Shown: positions 15,601 through 32,000 of the stretch, one piece after another
Position numbering within the stretch: position 1 is the stretch's first letter
Layout: the number at the start of each line of letters is the position of its first letter
From: Bacteroidota bacterium
GTDB lineage: Bacteria; Bacteroidota; Bacteroidia; Cytophagales; Cyclobacteriaceae
Direction of reading: 5' to 3'
Assembly (NCBI GenBank): GCA_018266395.1
Contig: JAFEAM010000012.1
Span: 263,786 to 295,785 of the forward strand
Length of the DNA: 32,000 nt
Made by a program: the position numbers and the translations under genes
Notes under the pieces: generated by a model
Database searches by the model: none
What the model saw: the letters and a program-made list of their open reading frames with translations, nothing else
Told to the model about the DNA's origin: nothing

Positions 15601-15767
15601 GCATTGGCCCCTGAGTAGGTAGTGCTCACGTTGATGTTGGGAGGGTCAATGGCAGGATAATCGCGCACACCCAAATAGGTAAATCCTATAGCTCCGAACA
15701 ATACAAGCAATATGTTCATCACGAAAGTGAGAACCGGGCGCCTGATACTGAGTTCTGAGATATTCAT
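12657..15767 (-). CDS. RND efflux transporter permease (AcrB/HAE1-like)
   Basis: 1036 aa with a 12-TM, two-large-periplasmic-loop architecture. The N-terminus 'MNISELSIRRPVLTFVMNILLVLFG' is typical. Its stop overlaps the TolC-like start by 14 nt. Confidence 0.95.
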   Translation of the reverse strand: MNISELSIRRPVLTFVMNILLVLFGAIGFTYLGVRDYPAIDPPNINVSTTYSGANADIIESQITEPLEKAINGIAGIRNISSSSSVGRSSINVEFNLGVDLEAAANDVRDKVSQAVRLLPQDLTAPPVVFKADANADYIISMTVQSNTRNALQLTEYATNVLVERMQTIPGVSSVNVLGEKKYAMRIWLDPSRLSAYNLTALDVQQALNRENVELPSGKIAGNATELTVRTFGRLYTEEDFKNVIVKATSTGNIRIRDIGEAVLGPENEESVLRESRVPMIALGIIPLPGANYVSIADEFFRRLDQVQKEMPADIKLDVSTDQTKFIKRAITEVEETLAISFVLVVLIIYLFFRDFIIAIRPLIDIPVSLTATFFIMYLSGFSVNVLTMLGIVLATGLVVDDGIVVTENIFKKLEKGMNKYQAAIEGSKEIFFAVVSTSITLAVVFLPVVFLPGFVGRLFREFGIVVAGAVLISSFVSLTLTPVLSVKLTRSNHSHSWFYHVTEPFFIGMENFYKHTLGRFMKVRWLALVIVAVCLTGTYFIGIGIQQELAPLEDRNQLRLNPIAPEGTSYDFMDKYVERLTQFVMDSVPEIRTVISNTAPAFGGASGSPNTGSVRVNLVDRKDRNRSQQQIVDDLNKYLPLFSEGRVFITQEQTIAVNRRGGQPVQFVIQNNDFEKLKSVIPKFMQMAQDNPVLQSVDVDLKFNKPELLVKINRLKATQLGISVQDISQTLQLAYSNLRFGYFTKEGKQYQVIGQVTRMDRDDPDDLKRLYVRTSSGELVSIDNVVTLEESTTPPSLYHFNRFKSATISAGLAPGKTIGDGINAMREIADKVLDDTFNTSLAGSSRDFAESSGNTSFAFILALVLIYLILAAQFESFVDPLIIMFTVPLAIFGAFLSLFVFKQTLNIFSEIGMIMLIGLVTKNGILIVEFANKKREEGLNKIDAVLEASRLRLRPILMTSLAMALGSLPLALSLGDASTSRIPLGIVIVGGILFSLVLTLFVIPAMYAYLSRKRKHINFEEQMAEPQKELTYEVH

Positions 15768-15776
15768 AAATGCTGC

Positions 15777-16829
15777 CTATTTGACAACAAGCTTGGATAT
15801 TTTCAATTTGGATCCCGGACGAATGGCCATCAAGCCTGTAGTGATCACCGTATCGCCCGGCTGAAGTCCTTTTACAATCTGTACATAGGAGGAATCCCTG
15901 ATACCTGTTTGTACAATTCTGAATGCAGCGCTATCCTTCTTCATTACGATTACGCGCTTGTTTCGCGCCTCAGGAATGATGGCCTGGCTTGGCAACATGA
16001 TCGCTGAGGAAGTTTTTCCCAGGCGAAGGTTCACCTTCGCAAAAACTCCGGGAACCAGTTCTGCATGCTTTTCCTGCACAATAGCCCGCACTTTCAAGGT
16101 TCGGGTGGTGGGCTCTATGTTGCCTTCTGTGGCCATAACAACCGCATGATGATCGAATTGACCACCATCCACACGGAAGGTAATATCATACCCTTTTGTG
16201 ATACTCTTGGCATATTTTTCAGGAACAGAGAACTCCAGTTTCAGTTTACTCACATCCCTCAGCGTCGTTATTATGTCGTTGGGTGAAAGATATGCCCCGG
16301 GACTCACGGAGCGCAAACCGATTTCACCCTCGTAAGGCGCACGGATTTCAGTCTTTGAAACGGCAATTTTTGTGGTCTGAATGTCGGCCTTCAAATTGTC
16401 CACGGCCAATGCACTCAAATCAAAATCCTGCTGACTGATACCCTGAATCTGCAACAATTCCTTTTGCCTTTCGACAGTCTTGATCGCGATCTGCAACTGA
16501 ACCTGCAACTTGCGCAGCTGAGCCTGCAGATCCTCGTCAAACAATTTGGCAAGCAGATAGCCCTTGGGAACGATGCCTCCTTCTGGAATATTCAATTGGA
16601 TAATCCGTCCGCTTACTTCAGATTTGATTTGAGTCGCTTCTGCAGCGAGCAAACTGCCTGGCACTTCCACATCTTCGCTCATGGCGCTCAATTGAACACG
16701 GAATGCTTCCACTATTATCGGACCACGGGGACGATTGCCCGGCGTCCGTTCAGACGCACCCTTTTTCTCGCAGGCAGCCAGTAGCATAAGAAATGCGAAA
16801 AAGAGCCATATGGACCGTTTCAGGGGCAT
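15777..16829 (-). CDS. RND efflux periplasmic adaptor (membrane fusion protein)
   Basis: The ORF runs 15777..16898. The ATG at 16829 gives the lipoprotein signal 'MPLKRSIWLFFAFLMLLAAC'. It has a coiled-coil hairpin plus beta-barrel pattern, and it ends 9 nt before the RND permease start. Confidence 0.9.
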   Translation of the reverse strand: MPLKRSIWLFFAFLMLLAACEKKGASERTPGNRPRGPIIVEAFRVQLSAMSEDVEVPGSLLAAEATQIKSEVSGRIIQLNIPEGGIVPKGYLLAKLFDEDLQAQLRKLQVQLQIAIKTVERQKELLQIQGISQQDFDLSALAVDNLKADIQTTKIAVSKTEIRAPYEGEIGLRSVSPGAYLSPNDIITTLRDVSKLKLEFSVPEKYAKSITKGYDITFRVDGGQFDHHAVVMATEGNIEPTTRTLKVRAIVQEKHAELVPGVFAKVNLRLGKTSSAIMLPSQAIIPEARNKRVIVMKKDSAAFRIVQTGIRDSSYVQIVKGLQPGDTVITTGLMAIRPGSKLKISKLVVK

Positions 16830-17074
16830 AAAGTGATGTTCAGGGGCGCAAATTTCTCTCCTTAACTTTAGAAATGCACATCCTGGTTGCAAATACATGC
16901 CAGGCGGTAAATGGGGATGACTTGTGGTTAAAGATCCGCTGGGCGCAGGCCTTGATTTCGTCCTTATTTGAGACTGGCCTAATTGGACAATTTGAGATGG
17001 GGAGATATTCCTAATGCACTGCCGTTGATGTTACCTGCTCTGATGATAATTCTGAAAGAACTAACAGTGTAAGA

Positions 17075-19438
17075 CTACATGGACTCGATCAGGAGTGGAG
17101 TGTCGGCCTCGTCAAGTTTGCTCGCAGGATTACTTTCATTTTCACTCTCACCTGGCGGCAGTTGATTTACTTCTTTCAATACGGTCCTTCTGGTAAGTAT
17201 CAACCATATCAGAGGCAAAACTCCGCCCGTGACAAAGATGGCGCCGCCGATGATCCTCAACCATGTGAGGGCTTGAAATGCTTTACTGTCGATAAAGGCA
17301 CTGCTTCGGGCAAACCATAATCCATGATCAAGCACAGCATTGAATTGAAGAATTCCCGCCGGGAACAAGTCAAGGAGTACCATAAGCAACAGACCGGCAT
17401 TAAGCGACCAGAAGGATAAGCTCACAATCCTGGACGGCCAACTTTCGGATCTGGACAGCAGCTGACAACAGAAAAGCATTCCGGCCAGTGAAAGGTTGCC
17501 GTACACTCCCATTAGCGCGGCGTGTCCATGATTGACGGTGAGATAAGTCCCGTGCTCAAAGTAATTCGCAATAGGAAGATTGATGATAAATCCCATTAGT
17601 CCCGCTCCAAAGAAATTCCAGAAGTTCACACCGACCAGGAAGAGAAAAACGGATGAGAAACCGAACGCATTATTTCCTCCGCGGGCAGTTTCCAATTGTA
17701 ACGGCAAACGACTGAAGCGCCAGGCCTCCAGCGTAAGCAATATCAATGGTACGACCTGTAGAGTTGAGAACACCGAGCCCAATGCCATGGTGAATACCGG
17801 TTTGGCATTCCAGTAGAAGTTATGAGAAATCCCCAGCAGTCCTGAGCCCAGAAAAAGCAGGCATGCGAGATAGATCACCCGAATGGCTGCGCGGGCACTC
17901 ACCAGTCCCATCAGGACCATGAAGTATCCGATCAGGACAGTGGTGAATACTTCAAAAAACGCTTCTGCCCACATGTGAACGACCATCCATCTCCAGAAAT
18001 CTGCAATAACAAAATTGGTATCAGGTGTGAACATGAACGCGGAGCAGAGGAGGATCAATATGCTGACGATCGAGTAAACCAACCAGTTAGGCAAGGCCCA
18101 GGGTTGATGAAGTTTCATCACCGGCCTCAGTCCCCGGTACAGGGTAAAAGCCCAAAGACAGAAGATTGCATAGAGGGTAATCTGCCAGATTTTGCCTGGT
18201 TCCAGGTATTCCCAGCCTTGATGGCCAAACCAATACCAATTGCTCCCAAAAAGCCCTTTGGGGCCACCAAAAATGCCAACCAGCCCCCCAATAACCAACA
18301 CCACGACGAGCCAGAAGATCAGGTTAACCAAGGTCTTTTGATGCCGGGGCTCCTTGGGTGAGAGCATGGGAACAACAAAAAGCGATGCGCCAATCCAACA
18401 ACCTGAAATCCATAGCAACGAAAGTTGAACATGCCAGCTCCTGGTAATTGTTACAGGTAAAACTTTTGAAATGTCTAACCCCCAGAAATTTACGAAGCCG
18501 ACAAAATCGTGTACCGTGAGAATGCCTGCAAGTACTTGCAAGCCAAAAAGCAGGATGGCGGCGTAAAAGAACTTGTATGTCGCCTTTTGCGTGTCTGTCG
18601 GATGGAATCGACTCACGCTCTCCAGTGTGAACAAAGGGCTGGCATCGCGGGTAAATGTTTCATTATCCAGTTTCTCCAGTCGCCCGTGGTAGAAAAGAAC
18701 AACGCCAAGTCCAAGAATAAGGCCGAAGGAACCTATGATGCTCCAAATGATAACCGCTTGACTTGGCGAATTGCCTGCTATCGGGTCGTAAGGCCAATTA
18801 TGTGTATAGCTGTAATCTTTGCCTGGTCTTTCAGTGCCGCACACCCACGCACTCCAGTAAAAGAATGAAGCAAGCGCCCGCAGATCGTTCTTATCGGTGA
18901 GATGGTGAGCCGGACTGAAGGAAGCTTTTGTATTGCCTGTGAAAACGCCGCTGTAGTAATCCACCAATTGTTCAGCGGCGTACACCTGGGCATCATTGAG
19001 ATTGACAGTATTGGTTCTTTCGTCAAAGTGATTCTCCTTGATTTCTTTTTTTACCCGGTTGTTGATGCCGTAGCGTTGCCAGGTCTGGTCACCAGCCTCT
19101 GTAGCTATTGACTTGAGGTAATAGTCCGCCATGAATTCAGCAACACGGTGGAGGGCATCAGCTGAAAAATCCGGACCTCGATTTGCGCCGTCCCCAAACA
19201 TGCTTCCATATTCCATCAGGGCATGTTCCTGAAATACCTGCTGGCCCTTACGTATATCAGCCTGTGTGATGACCAGGTTCTTGTCTGGCCCGGCATAGTC
19301 TGGAACCGGGGGAGCCTCCGTATAGGTATGGAGTCCAATCATGAAGACTCCGGCAATACTGATGACAAAAATGACGGTGAGAGGGATCCACCAATTCCTG
19401 GGATTGAGCAGAAAATCGATAAACCGGTAGTTTGCCAT
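17075..19438 (-). CDS. norB: quinol-type nitric-oxide reductase family protein (qNor/NorZ-like) with atypical, Nod-like active-site residues
   Basis: 787 aa from the ATG at 19438. It has an N-terminal TM helix plus a periplasmic domain of about 280 aa without CxxCH, followed by a heme-copper-oxidase core. That core carries 'RSWH', 'VVHMWAEAFFEVF' and 'VNHGHAALMG'. Unusually, the conserved His-His pair reads 'SHNFYW' and 'LEVVPL' reads 'LQVVPL' (see findings). Confidence 0.9.
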   Translation of the reverse strand: MANYRFIDFLLNPRNWWIPLTVIFVISIAGVFMIGLHTYTEAPPVPDYAGPDKNLVITQADIRKGQQVFQEHALMEYGSMFGDGANRGPDFSADALHRVAEFMADYYLKSIATEAGDQTWQRYGINNRVKKEIKENHFDERTNTVNLNDAQVYAAEQLVDYYSGVFTGNTKASFSPAHHLTDKNDLRALASFFYWSAWVCGTERPGKDYSYTHNWPYDPIAGNSPSQAVIIWSIIGSFGLILGLGVVLFYHGRLEKLDNETFTRDASPLFTLESVSRFHPTDTQKATYKFFYAAILLFGLQVLAGILTVHDFVGFVNFWGLDISKVLPVTITRSWHVQLSLLWISGCWIGASLFVVPMLSPKEPRHQKTLVNLIFWLVVVLVIGGLVGIFGGPKGLFGSNWYWFGHQGWEYLEPGKIWQITLYAIFCLWAFTLYRGLRPVMKLHQPWALPNWLVYSIVSILILLCSAFMFTPDTNFVIADFWRWMVVHMWAEAFFEVFTTVLIGYFMVLMGLVSARAAIRVIYLACLLFLGSGLLGISHNFYWNAKPVFTMALGSVFSTLQVVPLILLTLEAWRFSRLPLQLETARGGNNAFGFSSVFLFLVGVNFWNFFGAGLMGFIINLPIANYFEHGTYLTVNHGHAALMGVYGNLSLAGMLFCCQLLSRSESWPSRIVSLSFWSLNAGLLLMVLLDLFPAGILQFNAVLDHGLWFARSSAFIDSKAFQALTWLRIIGGAIFVTGGVLPLIWLILTRRTVLKEVNQLPPGESENESNPASKLDEADTPLLIESM

Positions 19439-19465
19439 GGTTTCGCTGTTTAGGGCCGTAAACCT

Positions 19466-19491
19466 AATAAAGGACAAGACAGTCCCTTATT
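19466..19491. promoter_or_regulatory. 26-bp palindromic candidate operator, AATAAAGGA-N8-TCCCTTATT
   Basis: The arms match as an inverted repeat at 8/9 positions (10/11 if extended to 19465..19492). It lies 27 nt upstream of the norB-like ATG, in the 146-bp divergent region shared with the tnaA-like gene. A near-identical copy is at 25806..25831. Confidence 0.45.
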
Positions 19492-19539
19492 ATCCTGATC
19501 ATATTGACTTAAATCAGGTGTACAGGCAACCTAATGGGA

Positions 19540-19547
19540 TATTTTTG
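19540..19547 (+). promoter_or_regulatory. possible Bacteroidota -7 promoter box (TATTTTTG = TAnnTTTG)
   Basis: This is an exact match to TAnnTTTG, 37 nt upstream of the tnaA-like ATG. I found no TTTG -33 element at the usual spacing, so support is weak. Confidence 0.3.
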
Positions 19548-19584
19548 CTACCCGGCCCATTGTCCCGGACCGGATCTAAAGATT

Positions 19585-20970
19585 ATGACGGAAAAGAAAC
19601 TAAGAACCCTGGCAGAGCCATTCAGGATCAAGATGGTGGAGCCACTCAAGATAACCACGGAAGAATACAGGGAGGAAGTACTCAAAAAGGCTGGATTTAA
19701 TCCTTTTTTGCTCAGGTCGGAGGATGTTTTTATTGACCTTCTGACGGACAGCGGTACGGGAGCCATGAGTGACCGTCAATGGGGCGGGATGATGATCGGC
19801 GATGAAAGCTATGCCGGCGCCAGAAGCTGGGAACACCTGGAGTCTGTAGTGAAGGAATTGACAGGCATGGCACATGTGCTTCCTACTCATCAGGGACGTG
19901 CCGCAGAGCGAATACTTTATGGGATACTGGGAGGCAAGGATAAAGTCTTCATCAGCAATACACACTTTGATACTACCCGCGCAAACATTGAGTTCACAGG
20001 CGCCAATGCTCTTGATATCATTCCGCCTACATCAAGAGATCCGGAAGTGGATCTCCCATTCAAAGGCAACATTGACACGGAAGAACTAGAGCGGTTGATC
20101 GTGAAGCATGGTTCTTCACAAATAGGCGCTGTGGTTATGACGGTCACAAACAATTCTTTTGGCGGTCAACCCGTAAGCATGCAGAATATGAAGGAGGTGC
20201 GTACTATTTGTGACCGCAATAAAGTATTTCTGGTTATTGACGGATGTCGCATCGCCGAGAACAGCTACTTCATTAAACATCGGGAGAATGGCTTTGCGGA
20301 TAAGACCTATGAAGAGATAGCCAAAGAGATGCTTAGACTAGGTGATGCATTCATTATGAGTGCAAAGAAGGATGGGCTGGTAAATATGGGAGGACTGCTC
20401 ACTTTAAAAGATGACGAGCTGAGCAGGAAATGCACGAACCTTCTGATTATTTCTGAAGGATTCACCACCTACGGTGGCTTGTCAGGTCGCGATATGGAGG
20501 CCATCGCCATCGGGCTGAAGGAGGTCTTCGATCCGGATTATTTACACTACCGGATCCGCAGTACTGCGTACCTGGGCGAGCATTTGCGCGCCAAGGGTGT
20601 ACCGGTGCTTTGGCCCATCGGCGGTCACGCGGTGTACATAGACGCCAAAAGACTTTATCCGAATATTCCTGTGAACGAATATCCCGGCCAGGTGCTGGTG
20701 TGTGACTTGTACGTGAAGGGAGGGATCAGGTGTGTAGAAGTGGGGAGCGTCATGTTCGGCAAATACGATGAGCGGCACCAACTGATCCCGGCTCAAAACG
20801 AACTGGTGCGGTTGGCGATTCCCCGCAGGGTATATACACAAAGTCATATCGACTATGTGCTTGATGTGTTCGATGATATTCTGGAACTGAGAAAACAGAC
20901 CCGTGGATGCCGGATCACCTATGAACCGCCTTTCCTCAGACATTTTACTTCGCAATTTGAAAGACTGTAA
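19585..20970 (+). CDS. tnaA: tryptophanase-like beta-eliminating lyase (PLP-dependent)
   Basis: The ORF runs 19534..20970, and the ATG at 19585 ('MTEKKLRTLAEPFRIKMVEP') matches the family N-terminus. The PLP-Lys motif is 'MSAKKDGLVNMGG'. Tryptophanase-type specificity positions are present: 'THFDTTR' (Asp) and C-terminal 'LRHFT' (His). Confidence 0.85.
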   Translation: MTEKKLRTLAEPFRIKMVEPLKITTEEYREEVLKKAGFNPFLLRSEDVFIDLLTDSGTGAMSDRQWGGMMIGDESYAGARSWEHLESVVKELTGMAHVLPTHQGRAAERILYGILGGKDKVFISNTHFDTTRANIEFTGANALDIIPPTSRDPEVDLPFKGNIDTEELERLIVKHGSSQIGAVVMTVTNNSFGGQPVSMQNMKEVRTICDRNKVFLVIDGCRIAENSYFIKHRENGFADKTYEEIAKEMLRLGDAFIMSAKKDGLVNMGGLLTLKDDELSRKCTNLLIISEGFTTYGGLSGRDMEAIAIGLKEVFDPDYLHYRIRSTAYLGEHLRAKGVPVLWPIGGHAVYIDAKRLYPNIPVNEYPGQVLVCDLYVKGGIRCVEVGSVMFGKYDERHQLIPAQNELVRLAIPRRVYTQSHIDYVLDVFDDILELRKQTRGCRITYEPPFLRHFTSQFERL

Positions 20971-20983
20971 ACGATAATTGACT

Positions 20984-22372
20984 ATGAAAAGAACTGTTCA
21001 GAAGAAATCATGGGCTGAGCCTTACAAGATGAAGATGGTTGAACTGCTGAATGTGACTAGCCGTCAGCAGCGGGCGAGAGCAATCAAGGATGCTGGATAC
21101 AACACTTTTCTTCTCCGGTCGGAGGATGTGTATATCGATCTGCTTACTGACAGTGGTACCAACGCCATGAGCGATCGGCAATGGTCAGCGTTTATGGTAG
21201 GTGATGAAGCTTATGCAGGGAGCGCGAGTTTCTATCGGATGGAGGCGGCCATTCAAAAACACTACGGTTACAAGTATGTCATTCCTACGCACCAGGGTCG
21301 CGGGGCAGAGAACATTTTATCCAAAGTGATGATCAAGCCGGGTGATGTGATACCGGGTAACATGTATTTCACCACTACCCGGCTCCATCAAGAACTGGCA
21401 GGCGGTAAATTTCACGATATCATAATTGATGAAGCCCACGACCCAGGGAGCGAACATCCTTTCAAGGGTAATGTTGACCTGAACAAACTGGCAGCCATCG
21501 TAAAGAAAGTGGGGGCTAAGAAGATTCCCTATGTAAGCATAGCCACCAATGTGAATATGGCGGGTGGCCAGCCAATCAGCATGAAGAACCTGAAGGAATT
21601 ACGCGCCTTCACTAAAAGGCACGGCATCAAAATTATTCACGATATGACGCGTGTAGCGGAGAATGCGTACTTCATTCAGCAAAGAGAAAAAGGTTACGAG
21701 AAAAAGAAGATACGTGACATCGTTCGGGAAATATGCGACAATACAGATGGAGCTACCATGAGTGCGAAGAAGGACGCCCTTGTGAATATTGGCGGATTCA
21801 TGGCTACCAACGACTGGAATGTGTACGAAGAAGCCCGGAACCTTGTCGTAGTCTATGAGGGTTTGCATACCTATGGCGGTTTGGCCGGCAGAGATATGGA
21901 GGCCATCGCCGTAGGAATCGGGGAAAGCCTAAACGATGAGCATCAACATGCCAGGGTGGGACAGGTGGAATACCTTGGCCATCGCATGGAGTCTTTTGGG
22001 GTCCCTATTGTGAGACCAATAGGTGGACATGGAATTTTTGTTGATGCCAAAGCTTTCCTGCCACATCTCACCCAGGATCAGTTCCCTGCTCAGACACTGG
22101 CCGCAGAGATTTTTGTTGACTCTGGCGTGCGAACTATGGAGCGGGGAATTGTCTCAGCGGGTCGCAAGCCCGATGGGACCAACTACTATCCTAAGCTCGA
22201 ACTTGTAAGGTTTACCCTGCCCAGAAGGGTTTACACGCAGGCTCATATGGACGTCGTCGCCGAATCAGCCGGATCTGTCTTTGAAAGAAGGAAGAAGATC
22301 AAAGGAATGAAAATGGTTTACGAACCAAAGTACCTGAGATTCTTTCAGGCAAGATTCGAGATGATCAAATGA
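20984..22372 (+). CDS. tpl: tyrosine phenol-lyase-like beta-eliminating lyase (PLP-dependent)
   Basis: It is very close to the remembered Citrobacter TPL sequence: 'AGYNTFLL.S.D.YIDLLTDSGTNAMSD.QW', 'GNMYFTTTRLHQE' (Thr at the phenol-binding position), PLP-Lys 'MSAKKDALVNIGG' and C-terminal 'LRFFQARF' (Phe-Phe). It starts 13 nt after the tnaA-like stop. Confidence 0.85.
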   Translation: MKRTVQKKSWAEPYKMKMVELLNVTSRQQRARAIKDAGYNTFLLRSEDVYIDLLTDSGTNAMSDRQWSAFMVGDEAYAGSASFYRMEAAIQKHYGYKYVIPTHQGRGAENILSKVMIKPGDVIPGNMYFTTTRLHQELAGGKFHDIIIDEAHDPGSEHPFKGNVDLNKLAAIVKKVGAKKIPYVSIATNVNMAGGQPISMKNLKELRAFTKRHGIKIIHDMTRVAENAYFIQQREKGYEKKKIRDIVREICDNTDGATMSAKKDALVNIGGFMATNDWNVYEEARNLVVVYEGLHTYGGLAGRDMEAIAVGIGESLNDEHQHARVGQVEYLGHRMESFGVPIVRPIGGHGIFVDAKAFLPHLTQDQFPAQTLAAEIFVDSGVRTMERGIVSAGRKPDGTNYYPKLELVRFTLPRRVYTQAHMDVVAESAGSVFERRKKIKGMKMVYEPKYLRFFQARFEMIK

Positions 22373-22399: not shown

Positions 22400-23401
22400 C
22401 TATAGCCACCCCATTTTCCTGTACCACTCTGCCGTGTGGATCAAGCCTTCCTCGAGAAGGTAGGTTGGCTTTTGTCCGGAGTCGTTCCAAAGCTCGCTGC
22501 TGTCGCACAGCCAGTTGGCACTGCTGATCTCCTTAAGTTTGTCAAGGTTAAGAAACGGCATTCTCCCGAAGGGGCGTTGAATGAATTCATTGATTCCGAC
22601 GGCCGCCTTCAGTGGTGTGAGCGGAAAACTTATGCGAAAGGTCGTTCTGCCCAAAGCCTTCCGGATAATTGCACCCAGAACCATTTTGTCATAAAACTGG
22701 CCATCCGATGCAAGATATATCGTATTCCGTCCTTTGTCTGCCAGGTGCAAAACAGATGCGGCAAGATCTTCCACATGAATCATCGAAATCATCTGACGAT
22801 GCCAGCCTAATGCTGGCTCAAAACCGCCAGCGATCATTCTGAAGAACTGAAGAAAATCCCTGTCACGCGGGCCATAAACGGCAGTCGGTCGGATAATAGT
22901 GACCGGAAAGGCACCTAATGACTCCAGATACTGCTCAGCCATCAGTTTGCTGCGTCCATAGGCAGATACTGGTTGGGGTCTGAAATCGACCTGTATGGGT
23001 TGATAAGTTGAAGGATCCCCGGGACCCATGGCTGCCAGCGAACTGATCAGTACAAACCGATCAGGTGGCTGTTGCTGTGCTGCCAGGATTCCTGCCAGGT
23101 TCCGTGTTGTTTCCACATTCACCCGTACAAAAGCCTCCTTCCGTTTTGCGTGTGTAATACCGGCATTATGGATCACATAGTTGATGCGGCCGTATTTTTC
23201 AATCAGCGCATTCATCTGCAGACTTAGCGCGGCTGGATCTTCAAGATCCAGTAACTCTACGTGAACATTTTCAGATGGAATCCACTCCCGTGAACTTGTC
23301 TTCCTCAATACCGCAATGGTTTCCCAACCCAGCTTTAGTGCCTGGTCAATAAGATGACTGCCGATGAAGCCGCTGGCGCCAGTAATGAGTACTCGTTTCA
23401 T
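22400..23401 (-). CDS. extended-SDR NAD(P)-dependent epimerase/dehydratase-family reductase (CerR-like / dehydrocapnine-reductase-like candidate)
   Basis: The ORF runs 22400..23557. The ATG at 23401 gives 'MKRVLITGASGFIGSHL' (Rossmann GxxGxxG), and the catalytic 'YGRSK' (YxxxK) is present. It is the last gene of the three-gene operon, 19 nt after the GNAT-like stop. Confidence 0.85.
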   Translation of the reverse strand: MKRVLITGASGFIGSHLIDQALKLGWETIAVLRKTSSREWIPSENVHVELLDLEDPAALSLQMNALIEKYGRINYVIHNAGITHAKRKEAFVRVNVETTRNLAGILAAQQQPPDRFVLISSLAAMGPGDPSTYQPIQVDFRPQPVSAYGRSKLMAEQYLESLGAFPVTIIRPTAVYGPRDRDFLQFFRMIAGGFEPALGWHRQMISMIHVEDLAASVLHLADKGRNTIYLASDGQFYDKMVLGAIIRKALGRTTFRISFPLTPLKAAVGINEFIQRPFGRMPFLNLDKLKEISSANWLCDSSELWNDSGQKPTYLLEEGLIHTAEWYRKMGWL

Positions 23402-23420
23402 GAACGTCGAGGTTGCCTTT

Positions 23421-24542
23421 CTACAGACTCTTGATGTAACAGCGTCTGCGCTTATGACGCCGGGCATCAAAATGATCCCAGAAAGATTGTACCAGCACGT
23501 TGTTTTCAAGTTCAGGATTAGATTCCACCTCACGAATACCAAAGGAGCGGTACGCATTCGCCACTTCTTCCATTAATACTGCGTTTACCCCTTTTCCCTG
23601 AAGATCCTTTCGAACGGCCACCAGATACAGATCGGCCACGGTATTTTTTTTCATCGCTTTCAGCAGGTGGATAAAACCGAAGGGAAAAAGTTTCCCTTTT
23701 GATTTCTGAAGTGCATCTGACAACGAAGGCATGGTTACGCCAAAGGCAGCAAGCTTTCCGTGCCTGTCAAGAATCAGGGGAACAAATGCCGGCAGGATAA
23801 ATGAGAAATATTGTTCCGTATAGTACTTGATCTGTCGATCGGTAAGGGGTACCACGCCATAAAGTTCGGCGTAGGCGGAGTTGACCAGTTCAAACAACTC
23901 TTTGGCGTATGGCAGAATGTCCTTGGCTTTCCTGGCTTTCACCACGCTGAGTCCAAAGCGTTCCCGCACTACGGCAGCCAATCTTGATACCTTTTCGGGC
24001 ATCTGTTTGGGCATTTTGATTCTGAATTCTACCCAATCAACCGCCTTGGTATAACCGAGCCGCTCCAGGTGAGCAGGGTAATAAGGGAAATTGTAGATGG
24101 TCGCTAACGTACCCACCTGGTCAAATCCCTCCACCAGCATGCCTTCGTGATCAAGGTCTGTGAAGCCAAGCGGACCATGGACGGCGGTCATGTTTTTTTC
24201 CCGGGCCCAGTCTTCTACTTTTTCAAGAAGTAATTCTACAATCTCCTGCTCGTCTTCAAAATCAAGCCAGCCGAACCTCATGTATGGGTTTTTCCACTTT
24301 TCAATGTAGGCGTGATTAAGAATGGCCGCCACTCGTCCAACAACGCTGCCATCCTTTCTAGCAAGCCAGTAACGGGCTTCACAGTAATCAAATGCCGGAT
24401 TTTTGTCCTTGCGAAGGGTATTGATCTCGTCAAAGCGGAGGGGCGGAACAAAGCAATAATTGTTCTTATAGAGAAGGTACGGGAACTCAACAAAGTCCCT
24501 TAGTTGTCGTTTAGTCTTAACTTCCTCAATGACCAGGCCCAT
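23421..24542 (-). CDS. GNAT-fold acyltransferase-like protein (candidate lipid N-acyltransferase)
   Basis: 373 aa. The C-terminal region has a GNAT motif-A-like acyl-CoA pocket, 'LVAVRKDLQGKGVNAVLMEEV'. The start overlaps the upstream alpha-oxoamine synthase stop by 17 nt. The functional call is tentative. Confidence 0.6.
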   Translation of the reverse strand: MGLVIEEVKTKRQLRDFVEFPYLLYKNNYCFVPPLRFDEINTLRKDKNPAFDYCEARYWLARKDGSVVGRVAAILNHAYIEKWKNPYMRFGWLDFEDEQEIVELLLEKVEDWAREKNMTAVHGPLGFTDLDHEGMLVEGFDQVGTLATIYNFPYYPAHLERLGYTKAVDWVEFRIKMPKQMPEKVSRLAAVVRERFGLSVVKARKAKDILPYAKELFELVNSAYAELYGVVPLTDRQIKYYTEQYFSFILPAFVPLILDRHGKLAAFGVTMPSLSDALQKSKGKLFPFGFIHLLKAMKKNTVADLYLVAVRKDLQGKGVNAVLMEEVANAYRSFGIREVESNPELENNVLVQSFWDHFDARRHKRRRCYIKSL

Positions 24543-25773
24543 GCGGTTGTAACTCCCCTACAATATCCAGTTTTTTGGCAATAACATGGATCTTGTCAAT
24601 GGCTTGTTCAATCTGTTCGCGGGTATGCGTTGCCATCAGGCTGAACCTGATGAGGGTGGCATCCTCTGCCACCGCAGGAGCTGTGATTGGATTTACAAAT
24701 ACACCTTCTTCCAGAAGTTGATTTGCGAGCATGAATGTCTTCTCATTATTGCGCACGTAGATGGGAATGATGGGTGTACATGTATTGCCGGTATCAAATC
24801 CAAGATCATGAAAAGCATGCAGGGCAAAATGGGTGTTACTCCAAAGCTGCTGGATTCTTGCCGGCTCGTGTTGAATGACCCTCAGGGCCGCAAGCGCACT
24901 GGCGGCGGCAGCAGGAGACATGCTGGCGCTGAAAATGAGTGAACGTGCCTGATGCTTAATGAAGTTGATTGTAGGCTGATCGGCTGCAATGAACCCTCCG
25001 ATGGATGCAAGTGACTTGCTGAAGGTGCCCATAATAAGATCAGTCTCATCCGTCAGACTGAAGTGTGAAGCGGTACCCCTGCCTTCAACACCGATTACAC
25101 CCAGGGAATGGGCATCATCTACCATGATGGTGGCCCCATAGTGTGCAGCGAGGCGAACCAATTCGGGCAGAGGCGCGATGTCCCCATCCATGCTGAATAT
25201 TCCATCCACGACAATCAGGATGGTTACATCCGGTTCAATGTTGCGGAGTATCCGCTCCAGAGCATTCATGTCGTTGTGACGAAATTTGACAGTACGCGCG
25301 AAGGAAAGTCTGCTGCCTTCGAGGATGCTGGCATGATCGAGCTCATCCAAGACCAGATAGTCATGCCTCCCCAGCAAACAGGGGATGGCGCCGATATTCA
25401 CCTGGAATCCGGTGCTGAAAACTACAGCAGCTTCCTTGCCCACAAATTCTGCCAATGCTTCTTCCAGTTCGATGTGTATGTCAAGGGTTCCGTTCAGAAA
25501 CCGTGAACCTGCGCACCCTGTTCCATACTTCCGGATGGCGGCAGCCGCGGCGGCTTTTACCTCAGGGTGATTAGTTAAACCGAGGTAGCTGTTGGATCCG
25601 AACATCAATACCTCCTTTCCCCCTATCCTCACCGATGTATCCTGATCTGATTCGATCACCCTGAAATATGGATACAGTTGCTGTGCCTTCAATCGTTGGG
25701 GAACGTCAAAGGCTCGTACCTTGTCATGAAGGGGATTATGTCTGCGGTTAACGGGATGGTGAGCAGTGTCCAT
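24526..25773 (-). CDS. alpha-oxoamine synthase, serine palmitoyltransferase-like (or cysteate-fatty acyltransferase-like)
   Basis: 415 aa. AOS motifs are 'GSNSYLGL', 'FSTGFQVN', 'DELDHASI', 'SMDGD', 'VDDAHSLG' and PLP-Lys 'GTFSKSLAS'. By memory, the overall pattern aligns well with Sphingomonas SPT. No biotin or threonine-degradation genes are adjacent. Confidence 0.85.
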   Translation of the reverse strand: MDTAHHPVNRRHNPLHDKVRAFDVPQRLKAQQLYPYFRVIESDQDTSVRIGGKEVLMFGSNSYLGLTNHPEVKAAAAAAIRKYGTGCAGSRFLNGTLDIHIELEEALAEFVGKEAAVVFSTGFQVNIGAIPCLLGRHDYLVLDELDHASILEGSRLSFARTVKFRHNDMNALERILRNIEPDVTILIVVDGIFSMDGDIAPLPELVRLAAHYGATIMVDDAHSLGVIGVEGRGTASHFSLTDETDLIMGTFSKSLASIGGFIAADQPTINFIKHQARSLIFSASMSPAAAASALAALRVIQHEPARIQQLWSNTHFALHAFHDLGFDTGNTCTPIIPIYVRNNEKTFMLANQLLEEGVFVNPITAPAVAEDATLIRFSLMATHTREQIEQAIDKIHVIAKKLDIVGELQPHGPGH

Positions 25774-25805: not shown

Positions 25806-25831
25806 AATAAAAGATGAAAGTATCCTTTATT
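25806..25831. promoter_or_regulatory. 26-bp palindromic candidate operator, AATAAAAGA-N8-TCCTTTATT
   Basis: The arms match as an inverted repeat at 8/9 positions. It lies 32 nt upstream of the AOS ATG (25773). It matches the norB-upstream site in 16 of 18 arm positions with the same 8-nt spacer. Confidence 0.45.
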
Positions 25832-25997: not shown

Positions 25998-26450
25998 TCA
26001 TCTGGATGAACGGGGGCTGTAGTTCTTCAGGTAAGCTTTTCCCTGCAGCACATCCCGGGCGGCGGACTGAATGCTGGTGTCCTTGAACACTTCTTTTAGC
26101 TTGTCTTTATAGAGTTTCACTTCGTGGTGCACAGGACAGGGAAAGGAATCGGAACATTTCTTCAGTCCAAGCGCACAGGAGCTTAACACATCATCACCAT
26201 CAATGGCCTTCACGACAGCATTGATCGGGATAGGCTTGGCTTTCGGATCCAGAAAGAAGCCGCCATTCGGTCCTTTAATGGACGAGATGATTTTCTTTCT
26301 TACAAGTGTCTGAAGAATCTTGGCGGTAAAGGGTACCGGTGAATCAATGGCACGGGCAATTTCTGGAATTCCTAGCCTGGAGCCATCTATGCTTTTCATG
26401 GCTATGAAGAGTACTGCACGGATCGCGTATTCGCAGGCCTTGGTGAACAT
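25998..26450 (-). CDS. Rrf2-family transcriptional regulator (NsrR/IscR-like, 3-Cys cluster motif)
   Basis: 150 aa. The N-terminal winged helix 'MFTKACEYAIRAVLFIA...GIPEIARAIDSPVPFTAKILQTLVRKKIISSIKGPNGGF' is typical of Rrf2 proteins. Three cysteines, C92-x6-C99-x5-C105 ('SSCALGLKKCSDSFPCPVHH'), sit where Fe-S ligands lie in NsrR/IscR. Confidence 0.9.
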   Translation of the reverse strand: MFTKACEYAIRAVLFIAMKSIDGSRLGIPEIARAIDSPVPFTAKILQTLVRKKIISSIKGPNGGFFLDPKAKPIPINAVVKAIDGDDVLSSCALGLKKCSDSFPCPVHHEVKLYKDKLKEVFKDTSIQSAARDVLQGKAYLKNYSPRSSR

Positions 26451-26667
26451 TGTTTTGTGTTTGATAGTGCCGCCCTGATACCGGAACGAACATAAAGCTA
26501 AAGAAAGGAAATGGCACTACCCCTCCTTTCAGCGGTTGGGTTTTGTTATCAATGGTATGCGTTTATTGACCACACTATACTCTCACCAATGACTAAATAG
26601 GATAATCGAAAATTGAATATTGGATATAATTTCAGCCATGAGGGCTTAACTTGTGCAATCTGGCATT

Positions 26668-27732
26668 ATGCGAATTCTGAAACCGGTCTTACTAATCTTT
26701 GCTGTAATCAATCTCCTTGTGGGAATGACCAGCGGCCTCGGTCGTATAGGTTGGACTATGCCCCTGCCCGAACTCTACGTACATCACGGTGCGATCATGG
26801 TCGGAGGTTTTCTCGGCAGCCTGATTTCATTGGAAAAGGTCATTCCATTGAAGAAGAACTTATTATATGCAGGGCCTGCGGCAGGCGTGCTCAGTATTAT
26901 TGCTTTGCTTAATGGTCGGTTTGATGTTGCCATTTGGTTGCTGATCTTTTCAAGTGCTGTCCTGATCGTGGTTTACCTGTACTATCTCATACCACATTGG
27001 GATTTCACCTTGATAGTGGCGCTGGCTGGTGCCTGTTGCCTGCTCATCGGGAACATCATCTTACTTCAGAAAAGGATGTACCCGTCTATCTACACCTGGT
27101 GGTTCGGTTTTCTTCTTCTCACCATCGTGTCTGAACGTCTCGAACTTTCCAAATTCCTCCCGGTGCCACCCCTGATGAAGAATTTGCTCAAGGTATTATT
27201 GGCGCTGTTTCTCCTCAATCTCATCAGCCCTTATTTAAACTGGAGGGGTTACTGGATTATGGGAGCGATCATGATGGCCATCAGTCTGTGGCTTCTTCGT
27301 TATGATATGATCCGCATTGGTATCCGCAAGAGCGAACTCACCCGCTTCACCGCGGTGGCGCTGTTATGCGGTTACATCGCCCTTTTTGTGGAAGGATGGT
27401 TTTTGGTAAGCCCTCCGTCAACCCTTGTATTGTACGATCTCGTTCTTCATACCTTCTTTATCGGCTTTGTGTTCATGATGATCTTTGCACATGGGCCCAT
27501 CATTCTTCCAGGTGTGCTCGGCTTTTCGGTCAAGCCTTACCATCCTGCTTTGTATGTTCCACTGATCGGACTCATTCTGTCGCTGAAATTGCGGATCATG
27601 GCAGACCTGGGATGGATCAACTATTCTTGGAGAGCGATCAGCGGCTGGATTTCGGCTGGCAGTATTCTCTTGTATTTTCTGACGATGGCCCTGACTACCC
27701 TCCTAGCGCTGCGTCATGCAAAAACTGCTTAG
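26668..27732 (+). CDS. polytopic (about 12-TM) membrane protein, unknown function, distantly NnrS-like (tentative)
   Basis: The ORF runs 26653..27732 and I preferred the ATG at 26668. It is hydrophobic throughout, with about 12 predicted helices by eye. Intramembrane His motifs are 'YVHHGAIMVGGFLGSLISLEK' and 'LHTFFIGFVFMMIFAHGPIILPG'. An internal echo is 'GGFLGSLISLEK' / 'FGFLLLTIVSERLE'. Confidence 0.7.
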   Translation: MRILKPVLLIFAVINLLVGMTSGLGRIGWTMPLPELYVHHGAIMVGGFLGSLISLEKVIPLKKNLLYAGPAAGVLSIIALLNGRFDVAIWLLIFSSAVLIVVYLYYLIPHWDFTLIVALAGACCLLIGNIILLQKRMYPSIYTWWFGFLLLTIVSERLELSKFLPVPPLMKNLLKVLLALFLLNLISPYLNWRGYWIMGAIMMAISLWLLRYDMIRIGIRKSELTRFTAVALLCGYIALFVEGWFLVSPPSTLVLYDLVLHTFFIGFVFMMIFAHGPIILPGVLGFSVKPYHPALYVPLIGLILSLKLRIMADLGWINYSWRAISGWISAGSILLYFLTMALTTLLALRHAKTA

Positions 27733-28891
27733 GGTACCGGTATTCTTCTTCTTCCTTGCGGGTTGTGTAGGATTGCTGCTTCGCTGGCAGGCGTATCGGC
27801 CGATCAACATCGACTACACCTTTTGGCTGCATGCGCATTCACATGTAATGTTCCTCGGCTGGATTTTCAACGCATTGATGGTGGGAATGATCTGGCGTTT
27901 TGTTCCCGGTGAGAAACAAGCAGGGTACAAACCTTTCCTCTGGTGGATCAACATTATGGTGACAGGAATGCTAATCTCCTTTCCGCTGCAGGGCTATGGG
28001 CTGTTTTCGATTTCCATATCCGCGTTGCATACGCTGCTTGTCCTTGCCGTCATTGTCCGTTTTTTCAGGGACACTTTTGAAAAACGAGATCAACTTCCTG
28101 TGTACGCAGCACGAATTGCGCTTGTCTTCTTTATGATTGCTTCCGCAGGCCCTTTTGTGGTCGGAACCCTGAAGGCCAATGGACTGGGTCAGTCAGACTA
28201 CTATTATCTCGCTGTCTATTACTATCTGCATTTCCAATATAATGGTGCTTTTCTGTTTGGCGTGTTTGCATTGTTGCTGGAATGGTCATCAGGTAAGGGC
28301 ATTAACCCCGACCACACGGCGCTGCGCCGGTCATGGAGGATATTATTTGTTGCTGTTTTTCCGGCTTATGTATTGACGGCCTTATGGACCAAACCCGGAC
28401 TGGCTTTTAATGCCATCGGCTTCATCGCGGGATTGATGCAGATAGTAGCGTGCTTTTATTTGCTTACAGCCATGAGCAGCGTGCCGTCGGATGCATGGCG
28501 TGCGATCTCACGCATAACCCGACGGCTGCTGACCCTTGCGATCATCAGCTTCGTCGTGAAGATCGTATTGCAATTACTGTCATCTTTTCCAGCCATTGCC
28601 CAGCTGGCTTACGAGAACCGTAACATAGTTATCGCCTATCTGCACCTGGTGTTGCTGGGCATGTTTACACTCGCGTTGATGGCATGGTACCATGAACAGC
28701 AGATCGTGAGGCTGAGAGTCTTTTGGACAGGGACCTTTGTACTGAGCTTCATCGTGCTCGAGTTGGTTCTTGTCATTTCAGGATTCACAGAAATCACATC
28801 TCTTCCTGTTCTGCTTCTGGTCACGACTGCAGGGTTGGTAATCGGACTTGGAGGTTGGGGGATGGGGATGAAGAGGGGCGGTGGTGAGTAG
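27716..28891 (+). CDS. polytopic (about 12-TM) His-rich membrane protein, unknown function
   Basis: 391 aa. The start overlaps the upstream stop by 17 nt. A recurring [W/Y]-L-H-x6-F helix motif appears three times: 'WLHAHSHVMF', 'YLHFQYNGAF' and 'YLHLVLLGMF'. Confidence 0.7.
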   Translation: MQKLLRVPVFFFFLAGCVGLLLRWQAYRPINIDYTFWLHAHSHVMFLGWIFNALMVGMIWRFVPGEKQAGYKPFLWWINIMVTGMLISFPLQGYGLFSISISALHTLLVLAVIVRFFRDTFEKRDQLPVYAARIALVFFMIASAGPFVVGTLKANGLGQSDYYYLAVYYYLHFQYNGAFLFGVFALLLEWSSGKGINPDHTALRRSWRILFVAVFPAYVLTALWTKPGLAFNAIGFIAGLMQIVACFYLLTAMSSVPSDAWRAISRITRRLLTLAIISFVVKIVLQLLSSFPAIAQLAYENRNIVIAYLHLVLLGMFTLALMAWYHEQQIVRLRVFWTGTFVLSFIVLELVLVISGFTEITSLPVLLLVTTAGLVIGLGGWGMGMKRGGGE

Positions 28892-31082: not shown

Positions 31083-32000
31083 TCAGATGGCGACATCTTC
31101 TTCAACCGCCTCGCTTTGCTTCACGCCTTTCTGTTCATACTGCTTCCGGAGTTCAATGGCGTGTTTCCGATTCTTGGAATAGAGGACATACTTTGGAACT
31201 TCCTTCAGGTCGTGGATGAGTCCCAATGCCGCAAAAGAACGAAGGATGTAGTAGGTAATGTCGATTTCCCACCAGAAGAAACCCTGACGGGTGGAGACTT
31301 CATAATAATGGTGGTTATTGTGCCATCCTTCTCCCATAGTAAGGAGGGCCAGCCATACACTGTTCTTTGACTCGTCCCCGGTGTCATATCGGGGCTTGCC
31401 GAACTTATGCATGATCGAATTAATTGAAAATGTACCATGGTAAAGAATTACCGTGCTCAGAAAGAACCCTATGAATAGGGCAGAAAATCCATAATGACTG
31501 AACATCAGAGCGGGGCTGCCACCGTTGACCCAGGCACCCAGCGCCATGACAGTAAGGGCGAGAAGAGTTGGGGGTATGAGGTAGTACTTGTTCAGCCACC
31601 TCAGTTCAGGATACTTGGCATAGTCTCCGATAACCTTGTAGTCTGTATCCTTGAAATCAGGTCCGACGATCCAGCCCACGTGTGAGTACCAGAAACCATA
31701 GATCTTCATGCTGTGCGGATCCTTGGGCGTGTCGCTGTAGCGGTGGTGATGACGATGATGGGCGGCCCACCACAATGCACCCTTCTGCGCTGAGGTCTCA
31801 GCCATGAAGGCGATGATGAATTGAAACCAGCGTGAGGTCTTGTAGGACTTGTGTGCGAAGTAACGATGGTATCCGCCTGTAATCCAGAACATCCGGAAGA
31901 AATACAGGAAGATGCACGTCATCCAATCAAAGAAAGTAGCCCCGGTAAATAGAGCCCCAAGCGGCAACAAATGAATTGCAATGAATGCCAGTTCCTGTTT
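31083..32000 (-). CDS. acyl-CoA (delta-9-type) fatty-acid desaturase (5' end outside the window)
   Basis: The His boxes 'HRYFAH', 'HHRHHHRYSD' and 'HNNHHYY' are all present. The frame stays open from 31970 to the window edge (…KQELAFIAIHLLPLG…), so the true start lies beyond 32000. Confidence 0.9.
   Translation of the reverse strand, partial: KQELAFIAIHLLPLGALFTGATFFDWMTCIFLYFFRMFWITGGYHRYFAHKSYKTSRWFQFIIAFMAETSAQKGALWWAAHHRHHHRYSDTPKDPHSMKIYGFWYSHVGWIVGPDFKDTDYKVIGDYAKYPELRWLNKYYLIPPTLLALTVMALGAWVNGGSPALMFSHYGFSALFIGFFLSTVILYHGTFSINSIMHKFGKPRYDTGDESKNSVWLALLTMGEGWHNNHHYYEVSTRQGFFWWEIDITYYILRSFAALGLIHDLKEVPKYVLYSKNRKHAIELRKQYEQKGVKQSEAVEEDVAI

Follow-up and report, generated by a model that had tools for sequence, protein, structure and literature searches.

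Which lipid is produced by the enzymes encoded in a compact group of three genes of a Cyclobacteriaceae bacterium is a question raised by their resemblance to two different pathways. The genes lie on the minus strand of a 32,000-nt stretch of contig JAFEAM010000012.1 (assembly GCA_018266395.1), referred to below as the window. They encode a pyridoxal phosphate (PLP)-dependent alpha-oxoamine synthase (AOS), a GNAT-like protein and an extended short-chain dehydrogenase/reductase (SDR). A preliminary description had likened this group to the ceramide pathway of Caulobacter and, with equal weight, to the synthesis of sulfonolipids (capnine) in Bacteroidota. Our analysis indicates that the three genes very probably form an operon of a serine palmitoyltransferase (Spt), a bacterial ceramide synthase (bCerS) and the reductase CerR, dedicated to dihydroceramide production by the bacterial, non-eukaryotic route. 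It is a compact new example of an already known pathway, and not a sulfonolipid one.

Organization of the gene cluster

The close packing described previously was confirmed from the coordinates of the open reading frames (ORFs; Table 1). The start of the GNAT gene is located inside the end of spt, giving an overlap of 17 nt (24526-24542), and 19 nt (23402-23420) separate the GNAT gene from that encoding the SDR. The motifs quoted for the three proteins are likewise present in the ORF translations: GTFSKSLAS and VDDAHSLG in the AOS, VRKDLQGKGVNAVLM in the GNAT-like protein, GASGFIG and YGRSK in the SDR. Such an overlap and gap imply that the three genes are co-transcribed and, probably, translationally coupled. 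The G+C content is level across the region (~0.49), and thus gives no hint of recent insertion. The arrangement is not a matter of chance, as the same AOS-GNAT-SDR order is kept in Flavisolibacter ginsenosidimutans and in a Cyclobacteriaceae metagenome-assembled genome (MAG).

The longest ORF of the SDR gene (22400..23557) would encode 385 aa; it was rejected because every homologue begins at the Rossmann motif. The most likely start is at MKRVLITGASGFIG (23401), which gives a protein of 333 aa, all 20 of the 20 syntenic homologues beginning at the equivalent M(K)KILITGASGFIG. Scans for sigma-70 promoters and terminators gave results at or below the shuffle expectation, and no match to the Bacteroidota -7 motif, TAnnTTTG, was found upstream of spt.

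First enzyme

On the basis of family membership, the AOS can be assigned as an Spt of the CFB type. It passes the cutoff of NCBIfam NF047600 SerpalmtaseCFB, the equivalog model for Spt of Bacteroidota (667 bits, cutoff 640), and stays below those of the beta-proteobacterial (394 vs 500) and alpha-proteobacterial (322 vs 670) Spt models, as well as below that of the ALAS model. Among PDB entries, the structures of Sphingobacterium multivorum Spt (3a2b/8guh) matched best, with 514 bits, compared with 305 bits for a Thermus-like AOS and ~275 bits for Sphingomonas Spt. Pairwise alignment with the S. multivorum enzyme revealed 58.6% identity in 389 columns, and both proteins have the same PLP-lysine motif, GTFSKSLAS, and the FSASM active-site loop. 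In the AOS from the window, the PLP lysine is Lys253 (in GTFSK), and HASI, DDAHS and FSASM are found at 147, 219 and 281, respectively. It differs from S. multivorum Spt in 14 extra N-terminal and ~12 extra C-terminal residues, and the coding region of the C-terminal tail runs into the next gene.

Candidate ceramide synthase

The GNAT-like protein is a candidate acyltransferase of the bCerS family, as suggested by synteny and by its homology to a proteobacterial protein encoded at the position of cerS. To reach the latter, the sequence of S. paucimobilis Spt was reconstructed with the help of a PDB alignment and led to Sphingomonas genomes, in which the neighbours of spt were inspected. In Sphingomonas sp. 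CV7422 the order of genes is cerR-like, acpR, spt, histidine kinase, LptF, LptG, two further genes, and a gene for a 390-aa protein, which has no Pfam hit and bears the NCBI name 'N-acetyltransferase'. It was reported that in S. wittichii, where spt is Swit_3900 and the Lpt genes are Swit_3905/3906, cerS (Swit_3908) is located two genes past the LptF2/LptG2 pair, and that cerS is adjacent to LptF2/LptG2 in Caulobacter and lies within two genes of them in Hyphomonas (PMC11324152 Table S2). The values published for CC_1154 and Swit_3908 (E 5e-109, 45% identity, 97% coverage; PMC11324152) point to a protein of ~380 aa. Our protein aligned with the 390-aa Sphingomonas protein over the full length (27% identity, E=7e-43), and hhalign comparison of the latter with a profile of 43 GNAT family sequences gave a probability of 100% and E=5e-47. 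Such a full-length match to a cerS-position protein is what would be expected of a bCerS family member.

The Pfam match (Acetyltransf_1) is limited to residues 287-346, no NCBIfam model matched the protein, and searches of PDB sequences, with both the single sequence and the profile, returned generic matches to the C-terminal GNAT part and no true relative. An AlphaFold2 model (pLDDT 84.8, pTM 0.84) is that of a two-domain GNAT, and the protein is thus predicted to be a tandem GNAT with an acyl-CoA motif. The motif, QGKGVN, comprises residues 315-320 in the C-terminal GNAT half; Q315, G316, G318 and N320 are invariant in close homologues, and G318 also in a diverse set. The best Foldseek matches were the tandem GNATs 2wpw (clavulanate pathway), 5kf1 (glucosamine N-acetyltransferase), MAB_4324 (7q3a) and MshD (1ozp), with TM-scores of ~0.6 and identities of 12-15%. 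They share with the model a two-GNAT-domain architecture whose C-terminal half carries the CoA-binding motif, but transfer acetyl groups onto small polar substrates.

The closest relatives of the GNAT-like protein are those from Sediminibacterium (71% identity), followed by Chitinophagaceae MAGs, Hydrotalea and Flavisolibacter (65-68%), which would suggest that the DNA comes from a bacterium resembling Chitinophagaceae. Family members of high-GC appearance that we sampled came only from Desulfobacterales, Acidobacteriota and Bacteroidales MAGs, with no Proteobacteria names among them.

Reductase

Assignment of the third protein to the CerR type is supported mainly by its SDR type and by synteny. 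It matches Pfam Epimerase (PF01370, E=7.6e-32), with an additional weak hit to NDUFA9, and the best hit to the classical-SDR family adh_short covers only residues 2-105. The glycines of G8-x-x-G11-x-x-G14 and the Ser-Tyr-Lys triad (S120/S121, Y148, K152) do not vary among the syntenic homologues, and nor does Arg33, which follows strand beta-2. A 333-aa extended SDR does not fit the classical Tsc10-like type (~250-280 aa), to which Tsc10, BT_0972, KCR and CapC belong. CerR of Caulobacter was described as an NADPH-dependent epimerase/dehydrogenase with homology to NDUFA9 (PMC11324152). The Sphingomonas protein encoded directly upstream of acpR-spt can be aligned with the SDR from end to end (28% identity, E=1e-16), and the family profile matched this CerR-position protein with a probability of 99.9% and E=4.8e-31, the C-terminal WYRxxGxL included. 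Neither a signal peptide nor any other sign of secretion was found in the SDR sequence.

Conservation of the gene order

Species-representative genomes were scanned with a 15-sequence GNAT alignment; the best 80 of at least 599 loci (referred to by L numbers) were kept, and neighbours were scored by tblastn in a span of 10 kb. Caulobacter and B. fragilis are not among these 80. The GNAT gene is accompanied by an adjacent AOS gene in 18 of the 80 loci and by an adjacent SDR gene in 17, both being present in 14. Linked loci come from Chitinophagaceae/Sediminibacterium, Cyclobacteriaceae, Saprospiraceae, Prolixibacteraceae/Draconibacterium, Flavobacteriales and some Bacteroidales MAGs and, outside Bacteroidota, from one MAG each of Phycisphaerae and Spirochaetes, the latter with AOS only. 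Two loci (L012, L052) have kept the GNAT-SDR pair without AOS. A neighbour-joining tree with the Sphingomonas protein as its root places the GNAT-like protein of the window in a clade in which almost all members are linked to AOS, SDR or both. When neighbouring ORFs were clustered, AOS and SDR proved to be the sole partners of GNAT recurring across lineages, the other conserved neighbours being lineage-specific housekeeping genes.

In several loci two GNAT paralogues occur in tandem: L057 (10001-11119 and 11190-12299), L060 (8834-9952 and 10001-11113), L061 (7808-8914 and 10001-11116), L064 (8751-9869 and 10001-11119) and L077. In Bacteroidales MAGs both paralogues lie within the spt...cerR cluster, for example in the order AOS-GNAT-GNAT-SDR. 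This pairing suggests two N-acyltransferases of differing specificity.

Proposed pathway and its alternatives

In the pathway which we propose, Spt would join L-serine and a long-chain acyl thioester in a condensation at PLP-Lys253, yielding 3-ketosphinganine. The tandem GNAT, with acyl-CoA held by its C-terminal half (QGKGVN), would then N-acylate the amine to give 3-keto-dihydroceramide, whose 3-keto group would be reduced with NAD(P)H by the extended SDR to form dihydroceramide. The cofactor is probably NADPH, because Arg33 after beta-2 is invariant. The Caulobacter-like logic suggested previously, namely AOS followed by a GNAT N-acyltransferase and an epimerase-family reductase, agrees with the match to Spt, the full-length homology to the cerS-position protein and the CerR type of the SDR. 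No genes for head-group enzymes were found in the window.

Placing acylation before reduction follows, by analogy, the intermediates found in knockouts of Caulobacter and B. fragilis; in the latter, 3-ketosphinganine accumulates upon loss of cerS and keto-dihydroceramide upon loss of cerR. One may also consider an order like that of eukaryotes, in which the GNAT acts on sphinganine after the SDR has formed it by reduction of free 3-ketosphinganine. It was the order first proposed for Caulobacter, bCerS was reported to accept both 3-oxo-sphinganine and sphinganine, and a working 3-ketosphinganine reductase, BT_0972, is present in B. thetaiotaomicron (PMC9278070). Moreover, the SDR encoded in the window is devoid of a signal peptide, which would place all three enzymes in the cytoplasm. 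However, the knockout intermediates indicate that acylation comes first, and BT_0972 is a classical, Tsc10-like SDR of 31 kDa (PMC9278070), a member of a family other than that of our reductase. We consider the eukaryote-like order rather unlikely, and favour reduction as the last step.

Several observations weigh against the assignment of the second and third genes to ceramide synthesis. About 60 of the 80 GNAT loci have neither AOS nor SDR within 10 kb. They come from Ignavibacteriota, Anaerolineae, most Spirochaetota, Clostridia (Thermoclostridium caenicola, Paradesulfitobacterium), Cloacimonadota, and gut Parabacteroides, Bacteroides and Proteiniphilum (examples are L022-L031, L033-L041, L048, L053-L059 and L071-L083). 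Thus, membership of this family alone is no proof of ceramide synthase activity. Identity of the GNAT and SDR proteins to their proteobacterial counterparts is low (27-28%), and the links to bCerS and CerR run via positional orthologues from Sphingomonas, not the assayed proteins. In the case of the SDR, 28% identity does not clearly separate it from other extended SDRs, and generic epimerases from the PDB reach E=1e-26 against its profile; all extended SDRs being related, the CerR assignment rests mainly on type and synteny.

These observations bear on the possibility that the GNAT-like protein has no ceramide synthase function and is a member of a broad family of acyl- or acetyltransferases which acts on another amine and is a mere neighbour of spt in some Bacteroidota. 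The family is very large (>7800 close hits; 5770 representative clusters at E<=1e-3 and 777 at E<=1e-30), most sampled loci, including those from phyla not known for sphingolipids, have no spt nearby, tandem paralogues occur, and the nearest folds belong to enzymes that acetylate small molecules, glucosamine N-acetyltransferase and MshD among them. Against this stand the overlap with spt, the AOS-GNAT-SDR order across Chitinophagaceae, Cyclobacteriaceae, Saprospiraceae, Prolixibacteraceae, Flavobacteriales and the Phycisphaerae MAG, the lack of any other conserved partner of the GNAT gene, and the full-length homology to the cerS-position protein. Furthermore, it was reported that the three genes are unlinked in gut sphingolipid-producing Bacteroidota, and that in Cloacimonadota MAGs neither bCerS nor CerR is encoded near the Spt-like genes (PMC11334938). 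Since unlinked genes have already been published for sphingolipid producers, the unlinked loci do not contradict the ceramide assignment, and a mere neighbour of spt with another substrate appears quite improbable. For the family as a whole, the unlinked loci leave room for a broader role. That it abounds in Anaerolineae, Ignavibacteriota, Spirochaetota and Clostridia, where no spt is linked to it, may be read as a sign of a second, non-sphingolipid function; alternatively, these groups might include unrecognised sphingolipid producers.

If the locus served sulfonolipid (capnine/sulfobacin) synthesis, the AOS would be a cysteate-fatty acyltransferase (CFAT), the SDR a 3-ketocapnine reductase, and the GNAT-like protein the missing capnine N-acyltransferase. 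Sulfonolipids do occur in Bacteroidota, their chemistry parallels that of ceramide synthesis, and no sulfonolipid N-acyltransferase has been identified in the literature examined. The AOS, however, passes the Spt cutoff and gives only 235 and 225 bits with the solved cysteate acyltransferases (28eh, 'cysteate-C-fatty acyltransferase', and Alistipes SulA, 7u7h), compared with 514 bits for Spt. It was reported that the single clear difference between SulA and Spt within the active site is Lys281, located 30 residues past the PLP lysine and replaced by Ala in Spt, and that the K281A substitution decreased SulA activity ~1000-fold (Radka et al., PMC9304779). In the AOS this position is occupied by Ala283 (Lys253 + 30), as in S. 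multivorum Spt, the register being taken from the Spt alignment and the published SulA numbering rather than from a direct alignment with SulA. In Chryseobacterium and Alistipes the validated 3-ketocapnine reductases belong to the classical Tsc10-like SDRs (~30 kDa), and their genes are scattered, apart from that of the acyltransferase (PMC11211663); no cysteate synthase-like gene is present among the genes of the window, the region to which this search was confined.

The preliminary description held that sequence alone could not tell serine from cysteate. The passed Spt cutoff, the difference between 514 and 225-235 bits, and Ala283 make the substrate class readable from the sequence, as judged from bit scores and the diagnostic residue, and they point to serine. 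The equal weight given to sulfonolipids can hence no longer be upheld; that alternative is largely refuted by these comparisons and seems very improbable. Finally, the proposal that the AOS is a housekeeping BioF or Kbl in a cluster unrelated to lipids, a grouping which the earlier description named as a refutation of its claim, has a generic AOS-family likeness in its favour (395 bits with TIGR00858 bioF, 389 with Kbl), but both scores miss the cutoffs curated for these models (426 and 460) whereas that for Spt is passed, the best solved relatives are Spt, and no biotin or threonine-degradation genes are adjacent, which refutes it at the level of sequence and leaves it a negligible probability.

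Comparison with known systems

The set of enzymes in the window corresponds to that of Caulobacter crescentus (Spt CCNA_01220, bCerS CCNA_01212, CerR CCNA_01222): the three families are the same, and so, presumably, is the chemistry: condensation on PLP, N-acylation by a GNAT-type enzyme and reduction by an SDR of the epimerase family. The likeness is in part by proxy, through the full-length homology of the window proteins to Sphingomonas proteins encoded at the corresponding positions, and identity in this pathway comparison is only 27-37%. There are also differences. In Caulobacter the genes are spread over ~10 genes, whereas here they are contiguous and overlapping; near the operon there is no gene for a dedicated acyl carrier protein (ACP; AcpR), an acyl-ACP synthetase (AasR), LptF2/G2 or head-group enzymes; and Caulobacter CerR was reported to be periplasmic, while the CerR-like protein has neither an N-terminal extension nor a signal sequence.

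With B. fragilis and B. thetaiotaomicron (spt; cerS BF9343_4218; cerR BF9343_4240; KDSR BT_0972) the window shares the phylum and the CFB-type Spt, and GNAT family members of Bacteroides, Parabacteroides and Proteiniphilum are ~50% identical to our protein. In these gut Bacteroidota the genes are dispersed (PMC11334938; loci L071-L083), unlike the single operon described here, and BT_0972, a classical SDR, is unrelated to our reductase. The sulfonolipid pathway (cysteate synthase; CFAT/SulA/CapB; KCR/CapC) resembles the proposed one in its parallel chemistry, its first enzyme of the AOS family and its occurrence in Bacteroidota. It differs in that the AOS described here does not belong to the CFAT clade and is without the diagnostic Lys, in that the reductase is of another SDR class, and in that the known sulfonolipid genes are not clustered.

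In public annotations of such clusters only Spt is named; the Flavisolibacter orthologue of the GNAT-like protein is recorded as 'hypothetical protein' and that of the SDR as 'NAD-dependent epimerase/dehydratase family protein'. Recognition of the operon would make ceramide synthesis predictable in many Bacteroidota of soil and freshwater (Chitinophagaceae, Cyclobacteriaceae, Saprospiraceae), environmental families for which the published generalisation that the genes are unlinked in sphingolipid-producing Bacteroidota (PMC11334938) fails. A compact, ACP-independent unit of three genes could also be handy as a minimal cassette, both for making ceramide in a heterologous host and for experiments on the step order. 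The value of the locus thus lies in annotation and in this cassette, together with a modestly novel regulatory lead.

Possible regulation by an Rrf2-family protein

The gene immediately upstream of spt, also on the minus strand, encodes an Rrf2-family transcription regulator and ends 224 nt before spt. The protein exceeds the cutoff of the NCBIfam model rrf2_super (82.6 bits vs 73.3) and falls below those of the models for IscR, NsrR, RirA and the SUF regulator. Canonical NsrR identity was rejected, as the score was 29 bits against a cutoff of 182 and the palindrome described below is unlike gATGyAT-N5-ATrCATc. Homologues of the Rrf2 protein are encoded 0.3-3 kb from spt in L001, L004, L005, L007 and L009.

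Between the Rrf2 gene and spt we found an 18-bp palindrome of the consensus AARGAYA-N4-TRTCYTT, which sits in an inverted repeat (25806-25831). It can be aligned with elements upstream of spt in L001 (6650-6667), L007 and L009 (1846-1863). A regular expression derived from the four sites was searched for on both strands of 1.3 Mb of loci; it gave nine matches, corresponding to seven distinct sites (two of which were counted on both strands), compared with ~1.2 in mononucleotide shuffles. A weight matrix identified the palindrome as the only strong site in the window (20.9 bits, the next best scoring 9.8) and added sites upstream of spt in L010 (8609-8626) and L004, and, in L042, upstream of a gene for a quinol-type nitric oxide (NO)-reductase-like (qNor-like) protein and upstream of an Rrf2 gene (5515-5532, 7106-7123). 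The loci bearing the palindrome are of Chitinophagaceae type.

The three new sites matched by the regular expression are all just upstream of one orthologous gene, encoding a protein of 605-609 aa (L004 11945-13762; L007 4100-5929; L014 3642-5468) with ...FHIPVMGLAYTIDSPVKVA... at its N-terminus. The palindrome always precedes this gene, which in L007 is directly followed by an Rrf2 gene and which is absent from the window. A Pfam search with the L007 copy of the protein gave no hit.

In L004, L005 and L007, spt is divergent from an operon of genes for cytochrome c, a COX1/NorB-like protein, PTPS and Rrf2, and there the site might serve only this divergent operon. As no divergent gene is present in the window and in L010, the palindrome in these two loci can only serve spt. 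One might propose that the palindrome is an Rrf2 operator which controls the spt operon, the Rrf2 link being made by association; we regard this as a tentative idea, somewhat doubtful as it stands. Equally speculative would be its extension, according to which an Rrf2 repressor of the Fe-S type, with the 18-bp palindrome as operator, controls ceramide synthesis in this lineage within one regulon that also takes in NO-reductase-like respiratory genes. If this were true, nitrosative, redox or iron stress would switch the production of outer-membrane sphingolipids. Among the papers listed by a literature search, none joined Rrf2 with sphingolipid terms, and the link between Rrf2 and the palindrome, if real, would be a first lead on bacterial regulation of sphingolipid synthesis.

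Genomic surroundings

The positions of the genes and sites are collected in Table 1. Among the neighbours of the operon none is obviously lipid-related save a gene of the fatty-acid desaturase family, and a link of the latter to sphingolipid modification is possible. From the downstream side, two tandem genes for beta-eliminating lyases converge on the operon. On the upstream side, a pair of genes for membrane proteins lies on the strand opposite to that of the Rrf2 gene and points away from it; neither product matched any Pfam or NCBIfam model.

Table 1. Location of the operon, its putative regulatory elements and other features of the window (sites in other loci are given with the locus number)
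Feature	Position	Strand	Remarks
spt, serine palmitoyltransferase (PLP-dependent AOS)	24526..25773	-	415 aa
cerS-like gene, tandem-GNAT N-acyltransferase, candidate bCerS	23421..24542	-	373 aa
cerR-like gene, extended SDR (NAD(P)-dependent epimerase/dehydratase family), candidate ceramide (3-oxo) reductase	22400..23401	-	333 aa
Rrf2-family transcription regulator	25998..26450	-	150 aa; three Cys in CALGLKKCSDSFPC; Pfam Rrf2 1.9e-22
18-bp palindrome AAGGATACTTTCATCTTT	25810..25827	-	37 nt upstream of spt ATG; candidate operator
Other palindrome sites	L004 6065-6082, 11821-11838; L007 4072-4089, 8714-8731; L014 3560-3577		
Beta-eliminating-lyase paralogue 1	19534-20970	+	fits only the tryptophanase subfamily model
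Beta-eliminating-lyase paralogue 2, tyrosine phenol-lyase	20978-22372	+	equivalog, 729 vs cutoff 721 bits
qNor-like protein	17075-19477	-	800 aa; COX1 and NorB cytochrome c-like domain
RND efflux operon, complete	11348-16898	-	membrane fusion protein, AcrB-family pump, outer-membrane factor
Hydrophobic, apparently multi-pass membrane proteins	26653-27732 and 27716-28891	+	359 and 391 aa; 17-nt overlap
Fatty-acid-desaturase-family protein	31083-31970	-	295 aa; ~5 kb upstream of the operon
Mur-ligase (MurF-like) module fused to complete alanine racemase	6902-9328	-	808 aa

The qNor-like protein was not matched by any NCBIfam model, and no palindrome was detected upstream of its gene in the window. 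Genes for qNor-like homologues lie near an Rrf2 gene in L042, L007 and L009. In the RND efflux operon, the longest ORFs of the pump and the outer-membrane protein overlap by ~90 nt. In the Sphingomonas locus, too, a desaturase gene (L084 16390-17481) is the neighbour of that at the cerS position.

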